A stretch of 32,000 nucleotides of DNA from contig NC_009483.1 in assembly GCF_000016745.1 (NCBI RefSeq), positions 4,260,001 through 4,292,000 on the forward strand, given 5' to 3'. Numbering within the stretch: position 1 is the first letter of the stretch; each line of letters begins with the position of its first letter. Positions 4,849-31,570 of the stretch are shown piece by piece. The DNA comes from Geotalea uraniireducens Rf4 (lineage in GTDB: Bacteria > Desulfobacterota > Desulfuromonadia > Geobacterales > Geobacteraceae). The notes under the pieces were generated by a model, which worked only from the letters and a program-made list of their open reading frames with translations, had not been told where the DNA came from and searched no databases. A program made the position numbers and the translations under genes.

Positions 4849-5060
4849 GTATAATTGTCGGCAATCCGCCGACTAAAATAAAGTATGTATACCGTTCGAT
4901 GCGTATACTTTTATCCTGATGCAAAATGTACTCACCAGATCGGTGACTTCTCAAAATCTTACAACGGGTTAAAAACATTCGTGTTTATTCGTGTCATTCG
5001 TGGCTAACTGCCGTTTTTGGATTTATTCGACAGCTACGATTCCCCCCCAACTCCCGATAC

Positions 5061-5099
5061 AAAAAAGCCCCCGGCTCAATGAGCACGGGGGCTTTTTCC
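5061..5099. terminator. Rho-independent, bidirectional-looking terminator downstream of the sfrA-like gene
   Basis: AAAAAAGCCCCCGgctcaatgagcaCGGGGGCTTTTT. A GC-rich 8-bp stem is flanked by an A-run and a T-run, 30 nt after the stop at 5131. Confidence 0.6.
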
Positions 5100-13925: not shown

Positions 13926-13933
13926 GGTCTAAC

Positions 13934-13966
13934 AAAAAAGCCCCCGATGAATCGGGGGCTTTTTTG
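13934..13966. terminator. Bidirectional rho-independent terminator between coaE and the convergent IclR gene
   Basis: AAAAAAGCCCCCGATgaATCGGGGGCTTTTTT, immediately 3' of the IclR stop at 13967. Confidence 0.75.
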
Positions 13967-14749
13967 TTACTTATGATAACCAAGCTTGGAGGATATTTCT
14001 TCCGAAGCCTTTAAGACGAGAGGAATCAGCTCCTTCTCCAACCTTTCATCGGTAAACCTCATGGATGGACCGGAAATACTGACGGCTCCGATAATTCGCC
14101 GCGTGTAATCGCGGATGGGAGCACCGACGCATTTGACCCCCACATCCAGCTCTTCGTTGTCAATGGCATACCCCTGCTGGGCAACCTGTGCCAAGTATTT
14201 TTTCAATTCATCCCGATCGGTTATCGTATTCGGGGTGTAGCGCTTCATTTCCTTGGAAGGGAGGTAATTAGCCAGCTCCTCGTCGGTCATGTAGGCTATC
14301 TGCACCTTTCCCGCGGCAGTGCAGTAGGCTGGCAACCTGGCGCCTACACGCGGTACCACTCGCACGGTGAGATCGGTTTCGACAACGTCCAGATAAATGA
14401 TGTGGAACTCTTTCAGGATCGCAACATAGGTCGTTTCGTTGCATTCCCTGACCAACCATTCAAGGACGGGCCGTGACTGGCGAAGAAGTCCCATCTGCTT
14501 AATGAAGGTCTGTCCCAGTTCGAGGGTCTTGAGCCCCAGTCGATAGTTCTCCGTGACCTTATTCTGCTCGATGTAATTCCTGGACTCAAGGGTTGCCAGC
14601 AACCTGAAAACATTGTTTTTATGCAGCTTCAGGCGCTTACTCAACTCGGTCACACCGAGCTCGTCCACATCGTCATGGAACTGCTCCAAAAGATCAAGCG
14701 CATGGGAAACTGCCTGAATAATATACTCTGATTTTTCTTTTTTTGCCAT
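13967..14749 (-). CDS. IclR-family transcriptional regulator
   Basis: 260 aa. It has an N-terminal wHTH (LGVTELSKRLKLHKNNVFRLLATLE) and a C-terminal IclR effector domain (GVKCVGAPIRD...GAVSISGP). Confidence 0.9.
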   Translation of the reverse strand: MAKKEKSEYIIQAVSHALDLLEQFHDDVDELGVTELSKRLKLHKNNVFRLLATLESRNYIEQNKVTENYRLGLKTLELGQTFIKQMGLLRQSRPVLEWLVRECNETTYVAILKEFHIIYLDVVETDLTVRVVPRVGARLPAYCTAAGKVQIAYMTDEELANYLPSKEMKRYTPNTITDRDELKKYLAQVAQQGYAIDNEELDVGVKCVGAPIRDYTRRIIGAVSISGPSMRFTDERLEKELIPLVLKASEEISSKLGYHK

Positions 14750-15704: not shown

Positions 15705-17288
15705 ATGGAGTGTTATGCTTTGCGTCTGCGCCTGATATCAAAACTAACCATTTCCACAAACATGGTATTGCTGATTTTCATGGTTATTTTTGCCTATGTA
15801 AACCTTGCAGCGTTAAAAAAGCTCCTTATCGAAGAAGCAGTTACAGACGCCGACAAACTGGGTGAAACCATCATCCGCGCCACCCAACACCAGATGGTTC
15901 ATGATGACCGTCAACGGATCCAGCAAGTGATAAAAGAAGTGGGGGCTGAAAAGGGAATCGACCACATCAGGATGATCAATAAAAACGGCCGCATCATTTA
16001 TTCCACCCAGGAGGAGGAAATAGGCACATTTCTCGACAAAAAAGCGGAAGCCTGCAACATGTGCCATTCCAGCAGTAACCCACGGACACACGCTTCCTCC
16101 ATGAACAGAAGCAGGATCTTTACCAGGCATGATGGAAAACAGCTTCTGGGCCTGGCCAAGGCCATTTATAACGAAGAGAGCTGTTTCTCCGCCAAGTGCC
16201 ACTTTCATCCCGAACGTTTCAGGGTTCTGGGCGTACTCGATGTTACCGTCCCCCTTGATCGCATGAATGCCCAGCTCAACTCCTACCGAGGCACAACCAT
16301 TGCTGTCACCATCCTCCTTATGGGGCTCATCTCACTCTGCATCACCATCTTCATTCAGCAACTGGTCAACCAACCGGTGCAACAACTTCTGAAGCACACC
16401 GAACAACTGGCGCGGGGAGAAATGGATACCAGTGTTTCCTTTACTTCGGGGGGTGAACTGGGAGAACTGGCTGACAGTTTCAACAATATGACGATGAAGC
16501 TCAAACGGGCAAGAGCCGAACTGGAGGACTGGGGAAAGAACCTGGAATCCAAGGTCGAAGAACGGACCCATGAGATTACGGATATCCAGGCACAGCTCAT
16601 TCGCTCGGAAAAACTTGCATCCCTCGGGGAACTTGTGGCCGGCATAGCCCACGAAATCAACAATCCGCTGACGGGTATCCTGGTTTTCTCCTCCCTTGTC
16701 AGCAAGGACCCTAAACTTGACCCATCCCTGAAAGATGACCTGGAGATCGTCGTTCAGCAGACAGAGCGCTGCAGTCAGATAGTCAAAGGACTCCTGGATT
16801 TTTCCAGGGAGTCGGTCCCCCAGAAAAAGTTTTCATCCCTTAACCGCATCATGGACATGTCACTTTCCCTCATCGAGCGTCAGGTGCTTTTCCAGAATAT
16901 CACCATAACGAAAGATTACAGCACTGACTTACCGGATATGCTGCTGGACCCCAACCAGGTCGAACAGGTTTTTGTCAATATGATCCTCAATGCCGGTCAG
17001 TCCATGCTTGATGGCGGCGATCTCCAGATCTGCACCGGCATGACAACGGACGGCTGTCACGAGTTTGTCAGTATATCCGATACCGGCTGCGGCATTTCAG
17101 AGGAAAACCTGGTGAAGATATTTGATCCTTTCTTCACCACCAAGTCAACCAAAGGGACCGGCCTGGGTCTGTCGGTTTCCTACGGGATCATCAATAATCA
17201 CAGTGGAACGATAGAGGTGGAGAGTAAGGTGGGAAGCGGCACGACTTTTACCATCATGCTGCCGACTAGACTAACAGAAATACTTTAA
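15705..17288 (+). CDS. Sensor histidine kinase: TM, periplasmic domain with CXXCH plus CX4CH motifs, TM, HAMP, DHp and HATPase
   Basis: 527 aa. The periplasmic segment contains CNMCH and CFSAKCHFH. HAMP is followed by the H-box AGIAHEINNPL, the N-box NMILNAGQSM, G1 ISDTGCGI and G2 GTGLGLSVS. Confidence 0.85.
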   Translation: MECYALRLRLISKLTISTNMVLLIFMVIFAYVNLAALKKLLIEEAVTDADKLGETIIRATQHQMVHDDRQRIQQVIKEVGAEKGIDHIRMINKNGRIIYSTQEEEIGTFLDKKAEACNMCHSSSNPRTHASSMNRSRIFTRHDGKQLLGLAKAIYNEESCFSAKCHFHPERFRVLGVLDVTVPLDRMNAQLNSYRGTTIAVTILLMGLISLCITIFIQQLVNQPVQQLLKHTEQLARGEMDTSVSFTSGGELGELADSFNNMTMKLKRARAELEDWGKNLESKVEERTHEITDIQAQLIRSEKLASLGELVAGIAHEINNPLTGILVFSSLVSKDPKLDPSLKDDLEIVVQQTERCSQIVKGLLDFSRESVPQKKFSSLNRIMDMSLSLIERQVLFQNITITKDYSTDLPDMLLDPNQVEQVFVNMILNAGQSMLDGGDLQICTGMTTDGCHEFVSISDTGCGISEENLVKIFDPFFTTKSTKGTGLGLSVSYGIINNHSGTIEVESKVGSGTTFTIMLPTRLTEIL

Positions 17289-17404: not shown

Positions 17405-18820
17405 CTAACTGCTGGCCTGGTTTCTGATCGAAATACCAAGCTTCTTTATCAGCGCCTGGAAGTTCGGCCGCAGCATGCCGGTTTCTTCAGCCGCACGGGT
17501 GATGTTCCAGTTGTTCCGTTTCAGCGCATTGAGGGCAAAGGCCTTTTCTACGGGCTCCACTGCGCGTTCCCGAATATGCCGTTTAGTTTCTTTCAATTCG
17601 TCGGCGCTTTGCGGAATAAATCCTGAAATAAGGCAGCTTTCGTCTCCGCCAGGCAAGGTAAGCTCAAGATTCTCCTTCTGGATAAGCCCCCCTTCAACCA
17701 GAACGACGGCCCGTTCAACAATGTTCTCGAGCTCGCGTACATTGCCGGTAAAGGGGTATTCCTCCAGCAATGCAAGGGCGTCAGGAGCCAATCCCCGGAT
17801 TTCCTTACCCATTTCTTCAGCAAATTTCTTCAGGAAGTGCGCTATCAGGAGCGGCAGATCCCCCTTCCTGTCCCGCAAAGGAGGAAGGTCTACCGGGATT
17901 ATATTGAGACGGAAAAACAGGTCTTCCCGGAAGCTTCCTTCGGCAACGAGGGTTCTGAGGTTCCTGTTGGTGGCCGCCACCAGACGGATATTGATCGGGA
18001 TGGGCTGTGTCCCGCCGATGGGGGTAACCTCGCGCTCCTGAAGAACCCGCAGCAATTTGGCCTGGGTAGTCAGGCTGATATTGGCGACCTCGTCCAGAAA
18101 AAGCGTTCCGCCATCGGCAACTTTAAAAAGCCCCATCTTGGTATGAACGGCTCCGGTAAAAGAACCTTTGACATGACCGAACAACTCTGATTCCAGCAGG
18201 TTTTCTGCCAGAGATGTGCAGTCCACTGCGACAAAGGGTTGGTCCCGCCGCTGGCTGTTCTTATGGATCGCACATGCAACGAGCTCTTTACCCGTGCCGC
18301 TTTCACCCGTTATGAGAACGCTACTATCGGTCGGCGCCACCTGCATGATCCGCCGATACACCTTTTGCATCTCCCGGCTTGCACCGATGAACATATCGAA
18401 GCCGTGATTATCCCGCAGCTCCTTGCGCAGATACATGTCATCGAACAGCACAGCTTTCTGCTCCAAGGCGTTTTCGACTTTTTCGATAATTTCTTCAGGG
18501 GTGAAAGGCTTGGCGATATAATCGACTGCACCGTTTTTCATGACTTCAACTGCGGTATCTACCGAGGAATAACCGGTGATGATAATAACCGGCATCTCAG
18601 GCTGAAGGACCTTAATGCTCTTCAAGACCTCCATGCCCCCCATTCCCGGCATTTTCAGGTCGGTTATAAGCAAGTCGAATGCCTCCGCCTGCAGCTTTTC
18701 AATGGCAAGATACCCGTTAGCAAAGGTTTCAACCGTAAACCCGCCACCATCGAGAATGCGGCGCATCCCCTCCCTGATAACCGCTTCATCATCGACGACC
18801 AGAATACGCTTTCTCACCAT
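17405..18820 (-). CDS. Sigma-54-dependent response regulator (NtrC family: REC, AAA+ and Fis-type HTH)
   Basis: Track ORF 17405..18898, trimmed to the ATG at 18820 (MVRKRILVVDDE...). The receiver has the acceptor Asp in LLITDLKMPG. Walker A is GESGTGKE, and the GAFTGA-type loop is GSFTGA. The C-terminal HTH is NWNITRAAEETGMLRPNFQALIKKL. Confidence 0.9.
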   Translation of the reverse strand: MVRKRILVVDDEAVIREGMRRILDGGGFTVETFANGYLAIEKLQAEAFDLLITDLKMPGMGGMEVLKSIKVLQPEMPVIIITGYSSVDTAVEVMKNGAVDYIAKPFTPEEIIEKVENALEQKAVLFDDMYLRKELRDNHGFDMFIGASREMQKVYRRIMQVAPTDSSVLITGESGTGKELVACAIHKNSQRRDQPFVAVDCTSLAENLLESELFGHVKGSFTGAVHTKMGLFKVADGGTLFLDEVANISLTTQAKLLRVLQEREVTPIGGTQPIPINIRLVAATNRNLRTLVAEGSFREDLFFRLNIIPVDLPPLRDRKGDLPLLIAHFLKKFAEEMGKEIRGLAPDALALLEEYPFTGNVRELENIVERAVVLVEGGLIQKENLELTLPGGDESCLISGFIPQSADELKETKRHIRERAVEPVEKAFALNALKRNNWNITRAAEETGMLRPNFQALIKKLGISIRNQASS

Positions 18821-19324
18821 TTCGCTTACCCCTTCACTGTCTGAATGTTCCATATCGCTCAATATGGCAAAGCATGTCCGGTTTATACACTGCTCCAATC
18901 CCCGCCAGATAAGCCATCAACCAGCGCAGCAATTTTCACGCCGATTTCATTTTTAGCCATTTCAAAGAATTTGTCCCGTTCAACAGCCACAACACCCGGC
19001 CCGTTTTTACTCGGCATTTTCCCGTCAGGAGTGGCAATGAAGCTGCTTAACGTCGCATAGATACGCGGCGCACCCAGGACAATCTTAAAATATATTAAGT
19101 AAACAATATTGGTAAGTCAAGCGCTAAACGCTTTCAACAAATGAGTGAAGCAAAAAACTATTTCATCATCGATCCCAACAGACAAAGGGTTTCCGTACCG
19201 TTGCATAAATAGCCACACATGGTGTATTTTTAATTATACATGCACCAAGCGAAAAGGCAAAGCATGTGATTACAATAGGTTAGAACAATAACACCCTTCA
19301 ACACCCATGCCCATCCACCTATTT

Positions 19325-19441: not shown

Positions 19442-19458
19442 CGGCACAGTCGGTGCAA
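19442..19458 (+). promoter_or_regulatory. Sigma-54 (-24/-12) promoter
   Basis: cGGCACagtcgGTGCAa. GG is at 19443-19444 and GC at 19455-19456, which is the canonical spacing of TGGCAC-N5-TTGCA. It lies about 55 nt upstream of the ATG at 19513 and next to a divergent sigma-54 activator gene. Confidence 0.65.
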
Positions 19459-19512: not shown

Positions 19513-19761
19513 ATGAAAAGCACAGTCAAAAACGCGTTACTTGTATTTATCGGCAGCGTTTCCACAGCCTTTGCAGCCGACGGAGTCGAAAAAGGAGAAA
19601 ACAGTTTGCTGCTGTTTCTCTTCCTGGGTTTTGGCGCCCTGATCATCGTCTTCCAGACGATTCCCGGCATACTGCTGTTTTTCTCAATGCTGAAGGGGCT
19701 GTTCATGTCAGCGCCAAAGGAAACCGCTCTTGCCGCTGAAAAACCCGACAAAACATCGTAA
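19513..19761 (+). CDS. Small exported/membrane protein P1 (82 aa): signal peptide plus one TM helix; uncharacterised
   Basis: A strong RBS (AAAGGAGGA) is present. The signal peptide ends ...STAFA/ADG. It is followed by the TM LLLFLFLGFGALIIVFQTIPGILLFF. It is a paralogue of the ORF at 20360..20605. Confidence 0.65.
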   Translation: MKSTVKNALLVFIGSVSTAFAADGVEKGENSLLLFLFLGFGALIIVFQTIPGILLFFSMLKGLFMSAPKETALAAEKPDKTS

Positions 19762-19928: not shown

Positions 19929-20309
19929 ATGCAAGGACTTCTCATAGCAGATGAGGACCTGGATAGCCGGAAGTTTATGGCCGACCTCTTTATCGAAGCG
20001 GGATATAACGTCATGGTAACAAACTCAGCGGCCAACGTGCTGTACGGCATTCTGAAAAAAACGGCCCAGGTGGTGCTGCTCAGCAGCGAATTTGACGAAC
20101 TGACGGCCACAGACCTGATCCCCCTGTTGAAAAAGTGCAACCGGAATTTGACAATTATCCTGGTTTCCAACGAAATGTCTCTGCCGCTCATTCGCAAACT
20201 GCGCAAGGAAGGAATTTTTTACCACGCGCTGAAACCTGTAAAACCGGAAGACCGGGAAGAGATCCGCCAAGCCGTGAAATGCGCTTTCGAAACCATGCGG
20301 GGCAATTGA
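19929..20309 (+). CDS. Stand-alone receiver-like (CheY-fold) protein lacking the phospho-acceptor Asp (pseudo-receiver)
   Basis: 126 aa. By-eye alignment to CheY shows the acidic pair retained (LLIADED). The acceptor position in VVLLSSEF is Ser instead of Asp. The T/S (ILVSNE) and K (ALKPV) positions are retained. Confidence 0.7.
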   Translation: MQGLLIADEDLDSRKFMADLFIEAGYNVMVTNSAANVLYGILKKTAQVVLLSSEFDELTATDLIPLLKKCNRNLTIILVSNEMSLPLIRKLRKEGIFYHALKPVKPEDREEIRQAVKCAFETMRGN

Positions 20310-20936: not shown

Positions 20937-21467
20937 ATGTATGCTATGAAGAACTGGCTTATCGGGGGAATTTTAATGCTAGCGCTGTCCGCGGTCCCTC
21001 CCGTCTGTCAGGGGATGAACATGCCGGATTCCATCACGCTTGATTCCCTGGTTCAGCTCTACGATAAGGTGAAATTCGATCATGCAAAACATATCAATCT
21101 GATAAAGGACTGCGCTGTGTGCCACCACCACACGACCGGCACGCTGGTTGAAGACCCCAATTGCGTCAGGTGTCACAAGAACAGCAGTGAAACCAAGATA
21201 GTGGCCTGCAAAGGATGTCATTCCGCGCAGACTTTCTCGGCAGAGACTCTGAGAGAGAAGCGGCAGGGCACAAAACTCTACCACCAGGACAAGCCGGGGC
21301 TAAAAGGAGCTTACCATCTGAATTGTATGGGATGCCATACCAAGATGGGTGGACCGACCGGCTGCCTGGATTGTCACAAACGGAACAAGGCAGGAGACGC
21401 TCTCTACAATTCCGGCAAGTCTGCGCCCAAAAAGGCACAGGGAAATGCAGCGGGCCACGGTCATTAA
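20937..21467 (+). CDS. Periplasmic pentahaem c-type cytochrome (cytochrome c3 / class III-like)
   Basis: 176 aa with a signal peptide. There are five CXXCH motifs (CAVCH, CVRCH, CKGCH, CMGCH, CLDCH) plus spare His residues for bis-His ligation. Confidence 0.85.
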   Translation: MYAMKNWLIGGILMLALSAVPPVCQGMNMPDSITLDSLVQLYDKVKFDHAKHINLIKDCAVCHHHTTGTLVEDPNCVRCHKNSSETKIVACKGCHSAQTFSAETLREKRQGTKLYHQDKPGLKGAYHLNCMGCHTKMGGPTGCLDCHKRNKAGDALYNSGKSAPKKAQGNAAGHGH

Positions 21468-21528
21468 CCAAGAAAGCCGGTGAAAGATTTTACCAGGCGC
21501 TAAAATTTGAACCGAAGGAGACACGAAC

Positions 21529-22452
21529 ATGAAGCGGAGAGATTTCCTGAAAGGTTGCATGATATGTGGGGCAGCATCCTCCCTTGGCATATCGAAAAAA
21601 GCCTGGGGGAGCGGTTCCTTTGAAGGATATCCCGAAGGAATGGGGGTCCTGGTAGATCTGACTCGCTGCATTGGCTGCCGTAGCTGCGAGGCGGCCTGCA
21701 ACAAGGAACAGCAACTTCCCGAACCAAAGGTGCCTTTCGATGATCAATCGGTTTTTGAGGAGAAACGACGTCCGAGCGAAGAAGCATACACGGTCGTAAA
21801 CCGTTATGAGCAAAAAGGCGGCCCGGTGTACCGCAAGATCCAGTGCAACCATTGTAACGAACCGGCCTGCCTCACATCATGCTTTGTAAATGCCTACACC
21901 AAAACAAAAGAAGGCGCCGTTATCTATAATTCAAAAGTGTGCGTAGGATGCCGCAACTGCATGATCGCCTGTCCTTTCAACGTCCCTGGTTACAGCTATT
22001 CGAGCGCAACCAACCCGGTGGTTAAAAAATGCATCCTCTGCTACGACACCCGCCTTAAATATGGAAAACCGCCTGCCTGCGTCGAGATTTGTCCCCAAGA
22101 GGTACTCACGTTCGGCTACAGGAAAGACCTGATCAAGATCGGTCATGAGCGGATCAGAGAAACGCCGGACAAATATGTAGACCACATTTACGGTGAAAAA
22201 GAAGTGGGAGGAACAGGATGGCTCTATCTCTCCAGCGTCCCATTCGACAAAGTCGGCTTTGATAATACATTGGGAAATGAGCCGATCATCTCCAACGTCA
22301 AGGAGTTCCTCGGCACTGTTCCCATGGTGCTCACCATCTGGCCTGCCCTGTTTACCGGATTCCACCTGCTCTCTACCCGCAAAAAGGGCCATGGAGACGA
22401 CCATGGGCATGACGCACATTCAAAATCAGAGCAGGAGGACGCAAAAAAATGA
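21529..22452 (+). CDS. Tat-exported 4x[4Fe-4S] ferredoxin-type subunit with C-terminal TM anchor (HybA/NrfC/HmcB-like)
   Basis: The twin-arginine leader is MKRRDFLKG. Four Cys clusters are present: CIGCRSCEAAC, CNHCNEPACLTSC, CVGCRNCMIACP and CILC...CVEICP. There is a hydrophobic helix near the C-terminus. Confidence 0.85.
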   Translation: MKRRDFLKGCMICGAASSLGISKKAWGSGSFEGYPEGMGVLVDLTRCIGCRSCEAACNKEQQLPEPKVPFDDQSVFEEKRRPSEEAYTVVNRYEQKGGPVYRKIQCNHCNEPACLTSCFVNAYTKTKEGAVIYNSKVCVGCRNCMIACPFNVPGYSYSSATNPVVKKCILCYDTRLKYGKPPACVEICPQEVLTFGYRKDLIKIGHERIRETPDKYVDHIYGEKEVGGTGWLYLSSVPFDKVGFDNTLGNEPIISNVKEFLGTVPMVLTIWPALFTGFHLLSTRKKGHGDDHGHDAHSKSEQEDAKK

Positions 22453-23846
22453 AAACATATAAAGCAAACGGAGTGGAAATAGTCGATTCCCTCTACAAGG
22501 ATAGCGGGAAGAAAAAATGGAACTTGATGGAGAAGCTGCTCTTGGGCCTCACCCCCCGGCAGTATATTGCCCAGGCCCTGCGCAACCCTTTCAACTGGAT
22601 ATTGGCAGTTATCTTTGCCATCGGAATACCGATAATCCTCGGCCGCTTCTTCTTCGGGTTAGGATGGGTAACCCACAGTTCAAATGATTATCCGTGGGGA
22701 ATGTTTCTGGGATTCGGACTCTTCGCCATGGTGCCCCTATCCTCTTCAGGATTCCAGCTTGGAACCACATGTGAGGTCTTCGGTCGCCATGACTTTGAAC
22801 CCATTGAGCGGCTAGGGCTCTTGAACGGCCTCTTAGGCTACTTATTCGCCGTCATCTATCTCATGGTTGACCTAGGGCAACCATGGCGGCTTCCCTATCC
22901 CATGGTGGTATCCTTCGGCCCCGCGGCGGTTCTCTTCCTGGTGGCCTGGCATGTGGCCACTTACCTGTCAGTCCAGGTAGCGGAGGTTTCGGTAGCGTTC
23001 TTCGAATGGATAGGTTTCCCGATGGGCAAACGAGGGGTGAGAAAAATCACCCTCGGCCTGACCGTGGCCGGCATCATTCTTTCAACCCTTCACCAGGGCG
23101 CCTTGGGAGCTCTCTTCACCTATGCCCCCGGCAAGGTGCACCCGCTCTGGTATTCCGCCTCTTTCCAGTGGCTCCACTTTTTCGTTTCCTCGCTGCCGGG
23201 GGGGCTCTGCATGGTCATCGCGGTGAGCACCATTGCCCGTAAGACGATGGCCTGGCGTTGCGGCCAGGGTTTCAACGACAATCTGGACAAACTTACCATC
23301 GCCCTGGCCAAGGGTGCCAGCATGGGACTTGCCACTTACCTTACCATCAAGCTGATCGGCATGGCCCACGACAACAAATGGGAATACCTCGCCACCGGCT
23401 GGGGGCAATGGTACATGTTCGAAATATTCTTCGGGGTCATCCTGCCTTTGGGGCTCTTCGCCTACGCCATCAGAAACAAAAAGGTCGGGCTGGTCCGCTT
23501 CAGCGCCTTTCTTACCGTATTCGGCGTAGTGCTCAACAGGGTGAATACCGCCATGATAACATTCAACTGGAAACTGGCGGAACGCGAAATTCCCCACTGG
23601 CGTGAGGTCATCATCTCCGTCACCATTTTCGCGATTTATATCACGGTTTATCGTTTTATCCTCTACCGCCTGCCGATTCTCTATTCGTGGAAGACTGCGG
23701 ATGAGACGGTAGAAGCAACGGAAGGTGCGAGAGTACCGAAAAAAGTCATCCGTGAAGAAGAGCCGGTGCCTGTTGGAACGTACAGGACGAGGGAAGAGAG
23801 CATCATTCCCACAGCCGGCTTCTCAAGCCTGGAAAAAGGGAACTGA
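22449..23846 (+). CDS. NrfD/PsrC-family integral membrane quinone-interacting subunit (HybB/HmcC-like)
   Basis: 465 aa and polytopic. There is an ATGA start/stop overlap with the Fe-S gene, and AGGAGGA lies upstream. The gene order Fe-S then NrfD is typical of NrfCD-type modules. Confidence 0.8.
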   Translation: MKTYKANGVEIVDSLYKDSGKKKWNLMEKLLLGLTPRQYIAQALRNPFNWILAVIFAIGIPIILGRFFFGLGWVTHSSNDYPWGMFLGFGLFAMVPLSSSGFQLGTTCEVFGRHDFEPIERLGLLNGLLGYLFAVIYLMVDLGQPWRLPYPMVVSFGPAAVLFLVAWHVATYLSVQVAEVSVAFFEWIGFPMGKRGVRKITLGLTVAGIILSTLHQGALGALFTYAPGKVHPLWYSASFQWLHFFVSSLPGGLCMVIAVSTIARKTMAWRCGQGFNDNLDKLTIALAKGASMGLATYLTIKLIGMAHDNKWEYLATGWGQWYMFEIFFGVILPLGLFAYAIRNKKVGLVRFSAFLTVFGVVLNRVNTAMITFNWKLAEREIPHWREVIISVTIFAIYITVYRFILYRLPILYSWKTADETVEATEGARVPKKVIREEEPVPVGTYRTREESIIPTAGFSSLEKGN

Positions 23847-23917: not shown

Positions 23918-24682
23918 ATGAGATTCCGTTGGACTGCTTATATTCTGGCGGCGCTCTTGGGAAGCGCGTCCCTGACATCCGCCTTGGAACTCAAGAACAA
24001 AACCTTCAGTACCGCAAACGCCGGCAAGGTTGTTTTCAGCCACACGTCACACCTGAAGAAGAAAAATGCCAAGAGCGCCAATGTAGGCTGCAAAGCCTGC
24101 CATAACGGCAATATGCGTGAGAACGTCCGCTATACCATGGCGGACATGGACAAGGGAAAATCATGCGGCATTTGCCATAACGGCAAAAAAGCCTTCGCAC
24201 TGGCAAAGTGCACGGTCTGCCACAAAGTGCGCGAGATCACGTTCAAGGTGAAGGAAACCGGGCCGGTCCTCTTCAGCCACGCCAAACACCTGAAAACCAT
24301 GCAATGCGGCGCATGCCACAACAAGGTTTTCAAAGCCGGCCCAAACAAGCGTGTCGACATGGCGCAAATGGAACGGGGGAAATCGTGCGGCGCATGCCAT
24401 AACGGCAAGAAGACCTTTGCCCTGGGAGAATGCACAAAATGCCACCCGGTAAAGGAGAAGAGCTATAAGGTTGCCGATGCCGGAAACGTCACTTTCAGCC
24501 ATAAGCTTCATATCGACATGTACAAGTGCCGGGAATGCCACAGCAGGCTCTACATCCCGGGTTCCGGCAACAAAACCGTTTCCATGGCCGAGATGGAGGC
24601 CGGCAAATCCTGCGGCGCCTGCCATGACAGTAAATCGGCTTTTACCGTGAAGGAAAGCTGTGACAAGTGTCACAGGACGTAG
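23918..24682 (+). CDS. Periplasmic nonahaem c-type cytochrome built from three tandem c7-type trihaem modules
   Basis: 254 aa with a signal peptide ending ...LTSA/LE. There are nine CXXCH motifs. Three repeats of V-x-FSH-x-x-H...CxxCH...MA-x-M-x-x-GKSCG-x-CH-x-x-K-x-F...C-x-x-CH are visible by eye. Confidence 0.85.
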   Translation: MRFRWTAYILAALLGSASLTSALELKNKTFSTANAGKVVFSHTSHLKKKNAKSANVGCKACHNGNMRENVRYTMADMDKGKSCGICHNGKKAFALAKCTVCHKVREITFKVKETGPVLFSHAKHLKTMQCGACHNKVFKAGPNKRVDMAQMERGKSCGACHNGKKTFALGECTKCHPVKEKSYKVADAGNVTFSHKLHIDMYKCRECHSRLYIPGSGNKTVSMAEMEAGKSCGACHDSKSAFTVKESCDKCHRT

Positions 24683-24685
24683 CGG

Positions 24686-24813
24686 GTTGTTGAACAACGA
24701 GGGCATATGAGGACGCGTTGCGAAAGGGCGATAAACCCGAACGTACAGGCAGTACGGAATGGTTTTGAGCCCTTGAGCAACAGGCAGTGCAGACCATGCC
24801 GATTTTCAGCAAC
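24686..24813. repeat. Element C: 128-bp imperfect palindromic intergenic element
   Basis: The left arm GTTGTTGAACAACG...GTTGCGAAAGGGCGATAAACC aligns with the reverse complement of the right arm GTTGCTGAAAATCG...GTTGCTCAAGGGCTCAAAACC. The apex CGTACAGGCAGTACG (24742-24756) is exactly central. The element begins 3 nt after the cytochrome stop. Confidence 0.65.
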
Positions 24814-24836
24814 ATGACAGGAGGAGGTAAACCGCC

Positions 24837-25703
24837 ATGTTAAGAAGCCTGACAGCCAGGGCCATAGTGCCGGTCGCAGTGGCGGTGACCGGGTTCGTCA
24901 TCGTCTGCTGCATTCTCCTTTACTCGGTCATGAAAACAGACATGGTCAACGACGCGGTCAGCTATGAAGCAAACCTGGCCGACACCATCATAAAGTCGAC
25001 CCGTTACGCCATGCTCAAGTCGGACCGGGAAACGGTGAGCAACATCATCGACAACATCGGCAGCCAGGACGGAATCGAACATGTGCGCATCTTCAACAAA
25101 AAAGGGCTCATCATGTTCTCGCAGCAGCATGAGGAGATCAACCGCTATGTGGACAAAAAAACTGCGGGCTGCATCGGCTGTCACGCCGGGACAGTACCGC
25201 ACGCCACCATGAGGGACATGGAGCGGGCACGCCGTTTTGTCAACACACTGGGTACGGAGGTGATTGCAATCACTGCTCCCATATACAACGAGCCCGCATG
25301 CTATACGGCCTCCTGCCACTTCCACACTTCCGGCCAGAAGATCCTCGGGACCCTTGATATCGGCCTCTCTGCGACGCCTCTTTCGAAAACGCTTTCCATC
25401 ATGCGCAGCAGGATGATGGTTTTCAGCATTATGGTGCTCATCCTCTCGGTGGGAGGAGTCGCAGCGCTTTTGAGGAGACAGGTCTTTATGCCGCTCCGGG
25501 AAATTAAGGCGTTTACAGCAAAAGTGAACCGTGGTAATCTTTCTCCCGAACTTTCAGGAATTTCCGGTGAACTGACCGAACTTGCCGGCGACATCCGGGC
25601 AATGGCCTCCAGGCTCAGGATCGCCGTCGATGAGCTCGAAAAGCTGAGAGGGGGCACGGAAGAGATGAAAGAGAAGGCAGGCGTGAACGCGAACAGCGTA
25701 TAG
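24837..25703 (+). CDS. Kinase-less sensor protein: TM, periplasmic CXXCH/CX4CH domain paralogous to the kinase sensor, TM, then HAMP
   Basis: 288 aa. It contains CIGCH and CYTASCHFH. It is collinear with the 15705..17288 sensor region (GIEHVRIFNKKGLIMFS vs GIDHIRMINKNGRIIYS; IYNEPAC...CHFH vs IYNEESC...CHFH). It ends about 20 aa after HAMP, with no H-box or ATPase domain. Confidence 0.8.
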   Translation: MLRSLTARAIVPVAVAVTGFVIVCCILLYSVMKTDMVNDAVSYEANLADTIIKSTRYAMLKSDRETVSNIIDNIGSQDGIEHVRIFNKKGLIMFSQQHEEINRYVDKKTAGCIGCHAGTVPHATMRDMERARRFVNTLGTEVIAITAPIYNEPACYTASCHFHTSGQKILGTLDIGLSATPLSKTLSIMRSRMMVFSIMVLILSVGGVAALLRRQVFMPLREIKAFTAKVNRGNLSPELSGISGELTELAGDIRAMASRLRIAVDELEKLRGGTEEMKEKAGVNANSV

Positions 25704-25867
25704 GAGCCAGTCGGACTTAGGAATGAATCTACTGCGAGAACGGAAAATCGGTCCATATTTCCGGAAATTTTCGACAAATAGGTCCACTATTCGCTCTCAA
25801 ATTTCCGATAATCTGTCCTCGATTTGCCATTCTCTCGTTACGATTCCCTAAGTCCGACTGGCTCCTA
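25701..25867. repeat. Element D: 167-bp element with 21-bp perfect terminal inverted repeats (MITE/REPIN-like)
   Basis: TAGGAGCCAGTCGGACTTAGG (25701-25721) is the exact reverse complement of CCTAAGTCCGACTGGCTCCTA (25847-25867). The inner arms are partly alignable, and there is an internal TTTCCGGAAA palindrome. Its first three bases are the TAG stop of the upstream gene. Confidence 0.8.
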
Positions 25868-25919
25868 GGTGAGCTGTTGCGGCCATCCAGCCATCGGCCA
25901 TCCGGAGATAACGCTCGCC

Positions 25920-26465
25920 ATGAAGAATCAAACCACCCACTCCTCTCAGCCGGAAGATGAGGCAAGCCTGCCGGTACAAAAGGGCACGCAGGAGAGCATG
26001 GAAAAAATCCGGCGGCTGAAGACAAAGGCAAGCCGCGGGCTTTTTGCAATGGCCCTCTTCATTGCCGTCAGCATCGGTGCAGTGCAGAATTTCGCTTTCC
26101 TCCCCACATTCACGCCTCAGATTCGAGCCATCCTCGGCACACCACCCTCGGCAAACATGATAAGCGCTGCGCTCATGCTTTACAGCTTCTCTGCCATCAT
26201 CCTCATCCTCTCGCGGATGATGAGCGGCTCCGGCAGCTACAGCGGATTTTCCCATGTGGGCTATCTCGCCGCGTTTTTCGCCTTTTATCATTTTAGCGGC
26301 GCACTGTATGAAAACTTCTGGGCCGTCTTTGCCGCCGGCACAACAATTCTCGGACTGGAAAGCTACCACATCTGGACGTTCTGTGCGGAAGAGATCAAAA
26401 AAGAGCAGGAAAGCCTGGCTGAGCATGGCGGGAGCAAAGGTAGCGGCGAGAGCGCCGGGGAATGA
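25920..26465 (+). CDS. Hypothetical membrane protein (about 4 TM), last gene before the thi operon
   Basis: Track ORF 25869..26465. Its GTG start would lie 1 nt past the end of element D, so I prefer the ATG at 25920 (MKNQTTHSS...). A hydrophilic N-terminus is followed by four hydrophobic segments. Confidence 0.55.
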   Translation: MKNQTTHSSQPEDEASLPVQKGTQESMEKIRRLKTKASRGLFAMALFIAVSIGAVQNFAFLPTFTPQIRAILGTPPSANMISAALMLYSFSAIILILSRMMSGSGSYSGFSHVGYLAAFFAFYHFSGALYENFWAVFAAGTTILGLESYHIWTFCAEEIKKEQESLAEHGGSKGSGESAGE

Positions 26466-26617
26466 CCTTGTGCGCAAAACCCCCGATAAAACGACACTAT
26501 ATGGACCAAGAAAAGAGTTGACAGAAGACGGTCAATATTGCTAGTTTACCTGATATTCGTGGGTTCATAACCACTCAAACCGCATGCCACACCCATATTG
26601 CTGAACAGACAATCGCA

Positions 26618-26712
26618 TACATCGCTGGGGGAGTTCGCAAGAACTGAGATCCGTCTTAACCGGAAACCCTTTGAACCTGATCCGGCTGATCCCGGCGGAG
26701 GGAAGCGCACTA
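26618..26712 (+). promoter_or_regulatory. TPP (thiamine pyrophosphate, THI-box) riboswitch
   Basis: CGCTGGGGGAG...CTGAGA...AACCCTTTGAACCTGATCCGGCTGATCCCGGCGGAGGGAAGCG matches the conserved TPP aptamer core (GGGG-GC...CTGAGA...ACCC-TT-GAACCTGATC-GG-T-AT-CC-GCG-AGGGAA). The P1 helix pairs CGCT with AGCG. Confidence 0.9.
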
Positions 26713-26732
26713 TTTAGGTCCACCAGACCATG

Positions 26733-26758
26733 AGCCGCTTCAGCGGCTTTTTTGTTTT
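26733..26758 (+). terminator. Riboswitch expression-platform terminator (attenuator)
   Basis: AGCCGC-TTCA-GCGGCT followed by TTTTTTGTTTT. It lies between the aptamer and the thiS start. Confidence 0.75.
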
Positions 26759-26794
26759 CAACGCCTGAATCACCTTCACAGCAATGGAGCAGCA

Positions 26795-26998
26795 ATGGAA
26801 ATAACCGTAAATGGCGACTCGACAACCATAGAAAAAATGTCCGTCCTTTCCTATCTTCAGACGCTCGATATCGATCCCCGGCGGGTCGCGGTGGAGCTCA
26901 ACCTGGATATCCTGCCGAAAGTTGATTATGAAACAACCATCATCAATGACGGAGACCGGATTGAAATCGTCCACTTCGTCGGCGGCGGCAGTTTATAA
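26795..26998 (+). CDS. thiS: Thiamine-biosynthesis sulfur-carrier protein ThiS
   Basis: 67 aa with a ubiquitin-like pattern. It lies downstream of the TPP riboswitch and upstream of thiG. The C-terminus is ...VHFVGGGSL. Confidence 0.85.
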
Positions 26999-27021
26999 AA
27001 GAAATCTTCAGGGAGATCAAC

Positions 27022-27804
27022 ATGAGAACTGATACAGATAAACTTATCATCGCAGGCCGCGAGTTCAACTCCCGCCTGATGGTCGGAACCGGCAAATATG
27101 CCGACTTTCAGCAGATGGTCAAGGCAATTGAAGTATCCGGCGCAGAAATAATTACCGTTGCCGTGCGGCGGGTAAACATCTCCGACAGAAACAAGGAATC
27201 TTTACTCGATCACATCGACACGAAAAAATACACCCTCCTGCCCAATACCGCCGGCTGCTATACTGCCGATGACGCCATCCGCACCTGCCGTCTGGCTCGG
27301 GAAGCGGGATTGTCCGACTTTGTCAAACTGGAGGTGCTGGGTGACGAAAAGACCCTGTTTCCCGACAACGAGGAACTGCTGAAAGCAGCCAAAGTCCTTA
27401 TCAAAGAAGGCTTTACTGTGCTCCCCTACACAACGGACGACCCCATCGTCTGCAAGAAACTCGAAGACATCGGCTGTGCTGCGGTCATGCCGCTCGGCGC
27501 TCCGATCGGCAGCGGTCTCGGCATCAGAAATCCGTACAACATCCGTATCATCCTCGATACGGTAAAGGTTCCGGTAATCGTCGACGCCGGCGTCGGCACA
27601 GCCTCCGATGCAGCCATTGCCATGGAGCTCGGCTGCCATGGTGTGTTGATGAATACCGGCATAGCCGGAGCAAAGGACCCCATCGCCATGGCAGAGGCCA
27701 TGAACCTGGCAGTGCGGGCAGGACGGCTTGCCTACCGGGCCGGGCGTATCCCGAAGAAGCTCTATGCCACCGCATCAAGCCCTGTCGAAGGAACAATAGA
27801 GTGA
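27022..27804 (+). CDS. thiG: Thiazole synthase
   Basis: 260 aa. It contains [10 protein letters not shown], the Schiff-base Lys region [21 protein letters not shown] and [14 protein letters not shown]. Confidence 0.92.
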
Positions 27805-28463
27805 AAACTGCGACAGATTCTCCATGGATAGATTTCAACCTCTATCTCATCACTGACCGGAAGCAGACCGAAGGTCGGAGTCTTGAATTTGTCGTCGAAG
27901 AAGCCCTGAGGGGAGGGGTCCGCGCCGTCCAGTTACGGGAAAAGGATCTCCCCAGCCGGGAACTGTACGAAACAGCCTACGAACTGCGAAAACTCACAGC
28001 CCGCCACAACGCCAAACTGTTCATCAACGACCGGGTAGACATCGCCCTGGCCGTGGATGCCGACGGCGTTCATCTGGGATACAACAGCATCCCCATCTAC
28101 CGGGCGAGAAAAATCCTCGGGGAGAAAAAGCTGATCGGCGTCTCCTGCCATAACCAGGTTCAGGCCATAATCGCCCAGGAACAGGGAGCAGACTTCATCA
28201 CCTTCGGCCCGATATACTTCACCCAGTCCAAGGCCCCCTACGGCGAACCGGTGGGCATAGTCAAACTGGCAGAGATCACCCACCTCCTCACTATACCGAT
28301 TTTTGCACTCGGCGGCATTAAACCCTATAACGTACCGGAGGTGATTGCAGCCGGCGCCCACGGCATAGCTCTCGTCTCCGCGATTCTCTCAGCTGATGAG
28401 CCGCGGACGGCGGCAAAGACCCTTATCTCTCTTCTGCCGCCGATGGAACAGCACGAAGTGTAA
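27801..28463 (+). CDS. thiE: Thiamine-phosphate synthase
   Basis: 220 aa. The GTG start overlaps the thiG stop (GTGA). Motifs are [49 protein letters not shown] and PIFALGGI. Confidence 0.88.
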
Positions 28464-29854: not shown

Positions 29855-31519
29855 ATGGCACAACAAGCCTTACATATACTTTTGTCTGAGTTAATCTCCC
29901 GTTGGGAAAATGAAGTAATCGAGTTCAAAAATGTCGGTGACTCATATTCGACATCTGACATCGGCAAATATTTTTCGGCTCTTGCCAATGAAGCCAACCT
30001 GCGGGATGTTGAAAAGGCTTGGCTGGTTTTTGGTGTGAATAATAAAAGCAGATCCATCGTCGGCAGCGATTACCGGCAGGACAATGAGCGCCTACAAAGC
30101 CTGAAAATGCAGATTTCAGCGGAGACTGAGCCCAGCATTACGTTCCGTGAAATTCATGAGTTGCAAAGTGATAAGGGACGCGTAATCCTGTTTGAAATAC
30201 CTGCTGCCCCTTTGGGGATGCCGATTGCCTGGAAAGGGCATTATTACGCCCGCGCAGGCGAAAGTCTGACTCATCTTGGCCTGGATAAGCTGGATGAAAT
30301 TCGTAAACAGGTAGGGGCAACTGACTGGTCTGGTCAGGTGGCTAACGCAGCTACACTGGATCATCTGGACACACACGCACTGACTAAGGCTCGTGAATCT
30401 TTCGCCAAAAAGTACGCTAATCGTTTTGCCCTGGAAGAGGTTATGACATGGCCTGAAAGTACATTTTTGGACCGTGCAAAACTAACAAAAGATGGCCAAA
30501 TTACCCGCGCTACCATTTTATTACTGGGAAAAGCTGAAGCAGCCCATTTGCTCTCACCGCAACCAGCACAAATGACCTGGAAACTGGAGGGGGTTGAGCG
30601 TGCTTACCAACACTTTGGCCCCCCATTTCTGCTGAATACCAGCATTCTGTATCAGAAAATCCGCAATATTCAGTTGCGTATCCTGCCGGAAGATCAATTG
30701 CTCCCCATTGAAGTGGCCAAATATGACCAGAAGATTGTGCTTGAGGCATTGCACAACTGCATTGCTCATCAGGACTACGGCCGCAATGGGCGCATCATTG
30801 TCACAGAACTACCTGACAGGCTGATTTTTGAAAACGAGGGCTCGTTTTATGAAGGGCAACCAGTTGATTATATTTCTGGGCACAAAACCCCCAGACGCTA
30901 CCGTAACCCTTTTCTGGCCCAGGCGATGGCTGAGCTTAATATGATCGACACCATGGGGTATGGCATTTATGAAATGCACATTGGACAGGCACGGCGCTAT
31001 TTCCCCCTGCCTGATTATGATTTGAGCGAGCCCTACGCGGTCAAGATGACAATCCATGGCAAGATTGTTGATCCTGCCTACAGTCGTATGCTTATCCAGA
31101 AAACTGATTTGTCATTACAAGACATATTTGCCCTTGATCGTGTCCAGAAAAAACTCCCACTTGATGACGTAATGGTGAAACATTTGCGCCGAGCAAATCT
31201 TATTGAAGGCAGAAAACCCAACCTCCACGTCTCCGCTACCGTTGCCGCTGCGACAGCGAGCAAGGCGGACTATATTCGTACCCGTGCCCAGGATGACGAT
31301 TATTACACCAAGCTGATACGTGATTATCTGGTTAAGTTTGGTTCTGCAACCCGCAAGGAGATTGATACTCTGTTGTGGGGCAAATTGAGTGATGCTTTGG
31401 ATGTCGAACAAAAACAGAACAAAATCGGCAACTTGATTACCAGTATGCGAACTACAGAAACAATAGTGAATACGGGATCTCGTAAATTACCCAAATGGAC
31501 TCTCAAAGAAAAAAAATAA
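29855..31519 (+). CDS. AlbA_2 (Schlafen-like) DNA-binding domain protein with C-terminal HATPase_c_4/RecG-C-like region and wHTH; often annotated as a putative transcriptional regulator
   Basis: 554 aa. The N-terminus ENEVIEFKNVGDSY...ALANEANL...AWLVFGV is typical of AlbA_2. The central LEALHNCIAHQDY...GRIIVTELPDRLIFENEG is typical of HATPase_c_4. Composition is visibly more A/T-rich than the neighbouring genes. Confidence 0.7.
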   Translation: MAQQALHILLSELISRWENEVIEFKNVGDSYSTSDIGKYFSALANEANLRDVEKAWLVFGVNNKSRSIVGSDYRQDNERLQSLKMQISAETEPSITFREIHELQSDKGRVILFEIPAAPLGMPIAWKGHYYARAGESLTHLGLDKLDEIRKQVGATDWSGQVANAATLDHLDTHALTKARESFAKKYANRFALEEVMTWPESTFLDRAKLTKDGQITRATILLLGKAEAAHLLSPQPAQMTWKLEGVERAYQHFGPPFLLNTSILYQKIRNIQLRILPEDQLLPIEVAKYDQKIVLEALHNCIAHQDYGRNGRIIVTELPDRLIFENEGSFYEGQPVDYISGHKTPRRYRNPFLAQAMAELNMIDTMGYGIYEMHIGQARRYFPLPDYDLSEPYAVKMTIHGKIVDPAYSRMLIQKTDLSLQDIFALDRVQKKLPLDDVMVKHLRRANLIEGRKPNLHVSATVAAATASKADYIRTRAQDDDYYTKLIRDYLVKFGSATRKEIDTLLWGKLSDALDVEQKQNKIGNLITSMRTTETIVNTGSRKLPKWTLKEKK

Positions 31520-31570
31520 GAATAAAAAAAGAATAAAAAAAGAATAAAAAAAGAATAAAAGCAGAATAGA
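31520..31570. repeat. Tandem 11-bp A-tract repeat (GAATAAAAAAA, about 4.5 copies)
   Basis: Copies at 31520-31530, 31531-31541 and 31542-31552. A shortened copy follows at 31553-31560, and a degenerate GAATAGAA at 31563-31570. The repeat starts immediately after the TAA stop at 31517-31519. Confidence 0.85.

Follow-up and report, generated by a model that had tools for sequence, protein, structure and literature searches.

An intact, transmitter-less haem-motif receptor-like gene and the miniature inverted-repeat element at its stop codon in Geotalea uraniireducens Rf4

We analysed a stretch of 32,000 nucleotides from Geotalea uraniireducens Rf4 (NC_009483.1, positions 4,260,001 to 4,292,000; hereafter the window, whose own numbering is used throughout), in which a short gene for a 288-amino-acid (aa) membrane protein with two haem-binding motifs ends at the border of an inverted-repeat element. 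This open reading frame (ORF) encodes a complete membrane receptor that by nature lacks a transmitter, and is not a broken kinase. The whole explanation that we favour, an intact CbcD-type receptor with a TA-duplicating element in its stop codon, is in our judgement very probable. The first-pass annotation of this DNA, made from the letters alone, had considered a kinase gene interrupted by the element, an older deletion, or a natural sensor with the element at its end, and had leaned to the last, which the element-free site of a close relative and the uniform length of the protein family now bear out. The features on which the argument depends are the following.

24837..25703, plus strand: cbcD-like gene, ATG start, 288 aa, TAG stop at 25701-25703
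25701..25702, no strand: left copy of the duplicated TA target, which also serves as the TA of the TAG stop, from the empty-site comparison with the contigs L011 and L012
25703..25865, no strand: non-coding miniature inverted-repeat element ("element D"), 163 bp, GGAGCC...GGCTCC, near-palindromic throughout
25703-25721 and 25847-25865: terminal repeats of the element
25866..25867, no strand: right copy of the duplicated TA target, from the empty-site comparison and the flanks of other copies
15705..17288, plus strand: full-length paralogue, a GSU0599-like sensor histidine kinase of 527 aa with a two-haem-motif sensor, HAMP, HisKA and HATPase_c

The short gene ends at its own stop codon

The empty site is present in two contigs from metagenomes (L011 and L012), which code for a protein of 288 aa with 96% identity and read ...AACAGCGTATAGGTGAGCTGTTGCGG... 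at this place. Their junction, ...AACAGCGTA TAG GTGAGCTGTTGCGG..., equals the window sequence less exactly 165 bp, and the final codon GTA and the TAG stop are identical in the window and in the element-free contigs (empty site ...GTA TAG GTGAGC...). The distance from the stop of the short gene to the next gene is 51 bp at the empty site and 216 bp in the window. A comparison with loci lacking the element had been set earlier as the test, and in these contigs the ORF ends at the identical residue, the result that the first-pass annotation had named as speaking against a truncation.

The family of the short protein is equally uniform. The search at E<=1e-5 gave 1374 homologues, and lengths and motifs were read on the best 120 of them: lengths are 259-332 aa, CXXCH is found in 120/120 and C-x4-CH-x-H in 114/120, and the tails after HAMP are short, hydrophilic and variable. 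The periplasmic domain alone, compared with 1.8 billion cluster representatives, matched 976 clusters; among the closest 14 (E<1e-30) are full-length proteins with a length of about 270-317 aa. Kinases (500-560 aa) turn up only at lower similarity. Because the family is uniform in length and the kinases appear only at lower similarity, the short, kinase-less form is, as judged from these sequence searches, a clade of its own.

That the short gene is a histidine kinase cut by a premature stop from the element, or by an older deletion, is suggested by the stop codon overlapping the inverted repeat and by the full-length kinase paralogue in the same window. The same last residue and the same TAG at the empty site of a close relative contradict an interruption by the element, and an older deletion of the kinase part is contradicted by the unchanged empty site and by the best 120 homologues, all similarly short. 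The remark that no H-box or ATPase remnant lies 3' of the ORF was correct: tblastn with the C-terminal half of the kinase against 25650-27100 gave a best E of 62 and no kinase remnant. The gene that adjoins on the 3' side is a conserved neighbour, and among the element-free orthologous loci none was seen in which the ORF continues into HisKA/HATPase. We give a truncated kinase next to no probability.

The element occupies the TA of the TAG stop

Taken with the TA (25701-25721 and 25847-25867), the arms of the element are 21 nt long and 100% complementary, and none such are expected in shuffled sequence; the block including both TA copies is 167 bp and the TAG stop overlaps it. The statement of the first-pass annotation that the TAG lies inside a perfect 21-bp inverted repeat stands as far as the overlap and the perfect arms are concerned, but the outermost TA is the target duplication and not part of the element.

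The element went into the TA of the native stop codon, TAG, and this TA was duplicated. Since the first base of the element is G, TA and G re-form TAG and leave the protein unchanged; physically, the insertion did no more than place a hairpin-forming spacer of 165 bp between cbcD and cbcE. That the stop overlaps the repeat follows from target choice (TA, usually within CTAG) and not from truncation. A 4-bp duplication (NTAG) was considered and rejected; it would require ATAG on both sides, and the right side is CTAG.

Elsewhere, an exact 21-mer or 19-mer end of the element was detected in 10 genomes of distant phyla, 28 metagenome contigs and one viral contig, the viral contig having a single element end only; the genomes include Spirochaetes, Rhodoferax, Chromatiaceae, Nitrospirota and Saccharospirillum. 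Complete copies number 27. They come from several phyla, from genomes as well as metagenomes, the majority are 165-167 bp long including the TA, and several sit on different contigs of one metagenome. The two-base target duplications across copies are mostly TA/TA, also CA/CA and AA/AA, and C-TA-G is the usual flanking context. At 19 of the 45 distinct TAG-flanked element ends, an open frame of 80 codons or more runs up to the element and ends exactly there; for TAG trinucleotides in general at these loci the share is 9.3% (binomial p 6e-9). Insertions at stop codons are presumably tolerated because no protein is altered.

At the short gene itself, the element stands at the same site in a contig of 97% nucleotide identity (L027) and is absent from L011 (95.6%), and therefore the insertion is, by this sequence comparison, recent and restricted to a narrow lineage.

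Two contigs of metagenome Ga0074193 carry the element near such genes. One of them stops inside the element directly after a cbcD-like gene (L027:6362-6497), and the other has a complete element followed by a cbcE-like gene, with unrelated sequence on the preceding side (L029:560-800); either the assembly was joined through the repeat here, or two element copies took part in a rearrangement. Separately, three loci (L004:4808-4828, L005:4601-4621, L006:775-795) have a single exact element end, for which a partner could not be recognised within reach, the lone ends in L005 and L006 abutting the stop of a long open frame; all three may be half-elements left by deletion.

Family of the element and its hairpin

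The element has terminal inverted repeats, a small size, no coding capacity and many copies, as expected of a transposable element of the miniature inverted-repeat type (MITE), and duplication of a TA target is seen in the filled versus the empty site and in the TA/TA flanks of most copies. Transposons of the IS630/Tc1-mariner type duplicate a TA target, and Correia and RUP are examples of MITEs derived from them. We place the element provisionally among the MITEs of this type, the single ground for the assignment being the two-base TA duplication. ISY100, which belongs to the IS630 family, made a TA duplication in 34 of 39 insertions and an AA/TT duplication in two (PMC2170065), and the preference of IS630 for TA within CTAG is indicated by the titles of Tenzen and Ohtsubo cited in the same paper. 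A blastn search of the element against plasmids gave no match.

The identical 19-21-bp end and the near-constant length (165-167 bp with the TA) of the family across distant phyla (window 25703-25865; L001-L010, L019-L047) are an observation in their own right. The cause is either selection for the hairpin as such or the adjustment of both halves to a single transposase.

A different role for the 167-bp block would be that of a selected RNA hairpin which, in a Correia-like manner, sets processing, stability or how strongly cbcD and cbcE are expressed relative to each other. The whole element does fold as one very stable RNA hairpin (-80.8 kcal/mol, z -10.3), compensatory two-sided changes preserve 22 of its 56 pairs across 12 diverse copies of different phyla and reach the element centre, and the block lies inside an operon, between two co-oriented genes. 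However, the relative with the 96%-identical protein lacks the element, copies stand in unrelated contexts with target duplications, and symmetric ends recognised by one transposase would also give apparent covariation. The Rfam search of 24500-27100 returned only a thiamine pyrophosphate (TPP) riboswitch and one chance match and no family for the element. A selected regulatory hairpin is for these reasons doubtful, with a small chance of being right. The element is an ordinary TA-duplicating MITE, and its family is widespread and apparently undescribed.

Paralogy between the short protein and the kinase sensor

The cbcD-like protein consists of a first transmembrane helix (TM1), a single-Cache-like periplasmic domain with two c-haem motifs, a second transmembrane helix (TM2), a divergent HAMP and a short variable tail. 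BLASTP aligned it to the kinase at 15705..17288 with 30% identity over 250 aa (E 2e-47; residues 20-268 against 25-274 of the kinase), which agrees with the shared sensor module noticed in the first pass. Both haem motifs are at corresponding positions, as had been read: CIGCH at 112-116 corresponds to CNMCH at 117 of the kinase, and CYTASCHFH at 155-163 to CFSAKCHFH at 160. The spacing in the short protein is C112-x2-C115-H116 and C155-x4-C160-H161-F-H163. In the kinase, Pfam HAMP at 220-267 is followed by HisKA and HATPase_c, and the short protein ends instead soon after its HAMP, as located by alignment to the Pfam HAMP of the paralogue; in the 288-aa protein the Pfam scan gave no HisKA or HATPase_c match and no output domain.

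An AlphaFold model was built on a 40-sequence alignment (predicted local distance difference test score, pLDDT, 75). It begins with a long N-terminal helix (TM1 and a periplasmic helix), followed by an alpha/beta domain and TM2, which leads into two helices joined by a connector. Its confidence is low only near the two haem motifs, which is expected because the model contains no cofactor. The best Foldseek match is a WalK TM-sCache-TM-HAMP model (E 7e-11), followed by the sensor domains of WalK, KinD, CitA and DctB, and 38 of the 40 relatives match sCache_3_2, suggesting a single-Cache/PAS-like fold for the periplasmic domain. A single-sequence search of the PDB with the short protein gave matches to dihydrodipicolinate synthase, which were set aside as chance.

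The Pfam scan of 40 sampled relatives took in sub-threshold matches. PF21563, the c-haem sensor of the GSU0582/0935 type, gave a sub-threshold match in 40/40 relatives (best E 4.3e-6) and 22.9 bits on the 288-aa protein, below the gathering cut-off of 27. The DUF3365/Tll0287 Cache_haem was matched neither in the 288-aa protein nor among the Pfam families found for the 40 relatives. The HAMP reading is derived from the alignment to the Pfam HAMP of the paralogue, the predicted helix-connector-helix and weak profile matches to solved HAMP domains. In the alignment of the 40 relatives both haem motifs are invariant, and the invariant H82, M59, M128 and H163 are candidate axial haem ligands; the cytoplasmic segment has the invariant or near-invariant residues P219, G233, G244, E245 and A250, the invariant P219 lying at the start of HAMP.

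The operon and its neighbourhood

The short gene lies between the cbcC-like and cbcE-like genes, where a respiratory operon of the sigma-54 type has its 3' end; the divergent regulators of this operon are a BccR-like activator and the paralogous full-length kinase. The following features surround the gene.

17405..18898, minus strand: sigma-54-dependent response regulator, BccR/GSU0598-like
19443..19457, plus strand: sigma-54-type -24/-12 element GGCACagtcggTGCA, about 55 nt 5' of the first gene of the operon
19513..19761 and 19929..20309, plus strand: operon head, an 82-aa protein and a single-domain response regulator (compare GSU0597/GSU0596)
20937..23846, plus strand: quinol-oxidoreductase-like module, gene order kept in relatives, resembling Cbc4 CbcSTU
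20937..21467, plus strand: cytochrome c with 5 CXXCH
21529..22452, plus strand: 4Fe-4S protein
22449..23846, plus strand: 465-aa membrane subunit, NrfD-like
23918..24682, plus strand: cbcC-like periplasmic cytochrome with nine CXXCH motifs in three c7-type domains
25920..26465, plus strand: cbcE-like membrane protein of 181 aa, the next operon gene, a neighbour of 176-182 aa being conserved in relatives

The gene order of the window is kinase, divergent sigma-54 regulator, 82-aa protein, receiver, two small proteins, 5-haem cytochrome c, 4Fe-4S protein, membrane subunit, 9-haem c7-type cytochrome, cbcD-like gene, 181-aa membrane protein, TPP riboswitch and thiS. The order recurs in six loci (Geobacteraceae and one Syntrophales metagenome-assembled genome, MAG), the Syntrophales locus being without the multihaem c7 and membrane-protein genes. 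An element of the -24/-12 type, read by eye, stands 55-75 nt 5' of the first gene at all six related loci; a sigma-54 consensus scan of the whole window was no better than chance, and only the position-specific comparison across loci is informative.

The oxidoreductase has the look of a module swap, since Cbc4/CbcSTU-like genes (20937-23846) stand where G. sulfurreducens has the 7-haem CbcA and the dihaem-b CbcB; the flanking regulators, the head genes and the cbcCDE-like genes are kept.

Other features of the window were also observed. A TPP riboswitch (RF00059, 26617-26720, plus strand, 67.7 bits, E 1.5e-12) lies 5' of thiS (26795..26998), which is followed by thiG (27022..27804) and thiE (27801..28463), and a terminator-like hairpin is found 3' of the riboswitch at 26732-26749. 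Five tandem 11-bp A-rich units, AAAAGAATAAA-like, occur at 31505-31570, directly after the stop of a 554-aa ORF with a Schlafen/AlbA_2 domain (29855..31519). A perfect 19-bp hairpin, TAACAAAAAAGCCCCCGAT/ATCGGGGGCTTTTTTGTTA, at 13930-13969 overlaps the 3' end of an IclR-family gene (13967..14749, minus strand) and looks like a bidirectional terminator; an arm related to it recurs at 5059-5078.

The short protein as a probable CbcD

A HAMP-domain-containing protein with two haem-binding sites, CbcD, is annotated in Geobacter (PMC7894505, PMC8396549); it is GSU0591 in G. sulfurreducens and Gmet_2931 in G. metallireducens, belongs to the Cbc5 cluster cbcEDCBA (GSU0590-0594) and is annotated as a cytochrome c subunit of Cbc5. 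The literature singles out two signal-transducer-like proteins of G. sulfurreducens with two CX2-4CH motifs, namely GSU0591 ("cytochrome c family") and GSU0599 (kinase, two-component) (PMC8396549; PMC3831638). The cbcBA operon of this organism begins with GSU0597 and the receiver GSU0596, has a sigma-54 promoter and is under the divergent BccR (GSU0598). The order in G. metallireducens is cbcC (11 haems), cbcD and cbcE, the last for a membrane protein (PMC10470525), and CbcC is a c-type cytochrome of 11-12 haems (PMC10470525, PMC7894505).

The short protein has two CX2-4CH motifs in a periplasmic domain between transmembrane helices and, by alignment and model, a HAMP with nothing after it, in a family of 259-332 aa; its gene lies between cbcC and cbcE in a cluster of the sigma-54/BccR type in the window and five related loci. 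Because its make-up, its gene position and the paralogue pair fit the G. sulfurreducens layout, we infer from synteny and the published descriptions that the window pair is the counterpart of GSU0599 and GSU0591 and that the short protein is CbcD. Cluster look-up of ten kinase-less representatives returned MAG and metagenome entries only, with no G. sulfurreducens entry, and neither GSU0591 nor Gmet_2931 appeared among the homologues listed.

Possible functions of CbcD-type proteins

The haem domain would probably report the periplasmic redox state or a haem ligand, and a HAMP without output would signal in trans to a partner; Cache_haem-HAMP receptors give the precedent of acting through a bound Ser/Thr kinase. 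The most plausible partner would be the paralogous kinase/BccR circuit, giving feedback on the operon. Heterodimer feedback with the kinase and a redox subunit had both been raised as possible functions in the first pass. We suggest, very tentatively, that CbcD-type proteins are trans-acting redox receptors, co-expressed once the sigma-54 operon is on, which would read the periplasmic cytochrome pool via two haems and retune the GSU0599-like kinase/BccR circuit through mixed dimers or HAMP contact. If so, the protein would exert feedback control over a low-potential respiratory branch.

The main rival reading, which we likewise consider unlikely, makes the short protein a dihaem cytochrome anchored in the membrane and serving a Cbc-type menaquinol oxidoreductase as a redox subunit that would pass electrons between the complex and CbcC, with HAMP-like helices that only dimerise or anchor. 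The two conserved haem motifs, the gene position, with the cytochrome gene cbcC on one side and cbcE for a membrane protein on the other, the annotation as a Cbc5 subunit and the redox roles supposed for stand-alone Cache_haem proteins (PMC12889525) are in keeping with such a subunit. However, the modelled sCache sensor fold with its receptor-type TM-sensor-TM-HAMP layout, the closest paralogues, which are kinases, and the conserved cytoplasmic residues listed above, which a mere anchor does not need, speak against a mere electron carrier.

Several points weigh against the favoured explanation of an intact CbcD-type receptor with a TA-duplicating element, or against parts of it. Pfam HAMP does not score the 288-aa protein and matches only 6 of the 40 relatives at E<=1, and covalent attachment of haem is predicted from motif conservation only. 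The orthology to GSU0591 is drawn from synteny and published descriptions rather than from a sequence alignment, and the gene directly upstream in Geobacter sp. DSM 9736 codes for another, hybrid kinase. A physical or regulatory link between the short protein and the kinase is hypothetical. No transposase with the ends of the element was found, the lone-repeat loci (L004, L005, L024, L033, L035, L037, L046) holding housekeeping genes only.

The present analysis removes the tempting account of a kinase cut by a transposon, and the gene is to be annotated as an intact CbcD-type protein. For annotators it is of use that TA-duplicating elements starting with G can occupy a TAG stop without altering the protein, and that this is frequent in the present element family. 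CbcD is a conserved, expressed, output-less predicted haem receptor beside the respiratory genes on which Geobacter relies close to the thermodynamic limit, and a direct test of its function is now worthwhile because HAMP-only haem receptors have recently been shown to act via bound partners.

Comparison with known systems

The element resembles the MITEs derived from IS630/Tc1-mariner transposons in being small, non-coding and multicopy, with terminal inverted repeats, a TA duplication, a frequent CTAG context and a long hairpin. It differs from them in that a cognate transposase was not found among the lone-repeat loci or plasmids, in the identity of the 21-bp end across very distant phyla and in the compensatory changes of its interior. 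Chunjie, a MITE described for G. uraniireducens Rf4 itself, is described as 178-235 bp long with 9-bp direct repeats, e.g., ACGACCGGT (PMC3184786); it is likewise small, has 21-bp terminal inverted repeats and was inserted within an operon without breaking it. An identity with Chunjie was rejected on the published size and repeat length (178-235 bp and 9 bp, against 163 bp and the 2-bp TA).

The GSU0582 and GSU0935 sensors (PDB 3B42, 3B47; PF21563) share with the short protein a periplasmic PAS/Cache-like domain of the covalent-haem type between transmembrane helices, followed by HAMP, and the invariant Met59 in the N-terminal helix of the short-protein family recalls Met60, the axial ligand of GSU0935 (PMC8396549). 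These sensors have one haem and a methyl-accepting output domain, whereas the CbcD-like family has two haem motifs and no output; the profile of the short protein matches 3B42 weakly (E 0.68), and its PF21563 score lies under the cut-off.

In the Cache_haem-HAMP (CHH) receptor of Pseudomonas (DUF3365), the uncoupled HAMP forms a complex with a Ser/Thr kinase encoded in the operon, which phosphorylates it; such a HAMP can thus signal via a non-covalently bound partner (bioRxiv 10.64898/2026.05.25.727664). CHH receptors and the short protein have in common a periplasmic c-haem Cache, transmembrane helices and a HAMP without a fused output. CHH receptors differ in their DUF3365 domain and in having one haem motif, compared with two in the CbcD-like family, and, unlike at the CHH locus, no Ser/Thr kinase or PP2C phosphatase gene was seen in the window or the six related loci.

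The closest known system is the one in which the protein type is already annotated, namely CbcD of Geobacter, and the feature is on the whole ordinary and largely known. Cbc5 of G. sulfurreducens has CbcA (7-haem c) and CbcB (dihaem b), whereas the window has a 5-haem c, a 4Fe-4S protein and an NrfD-like membrane protein, and the CbcC-like protein of the window has 9 CXXCH, compared with the 11-12 haems of Geobacter CbcC. The two systems are alike in the HAMP with two haem sites, the gene position between cbcC and cbcE, the sigma-54 operon, the BccR-type regulator and the kinase paralogue with two haem motifs.

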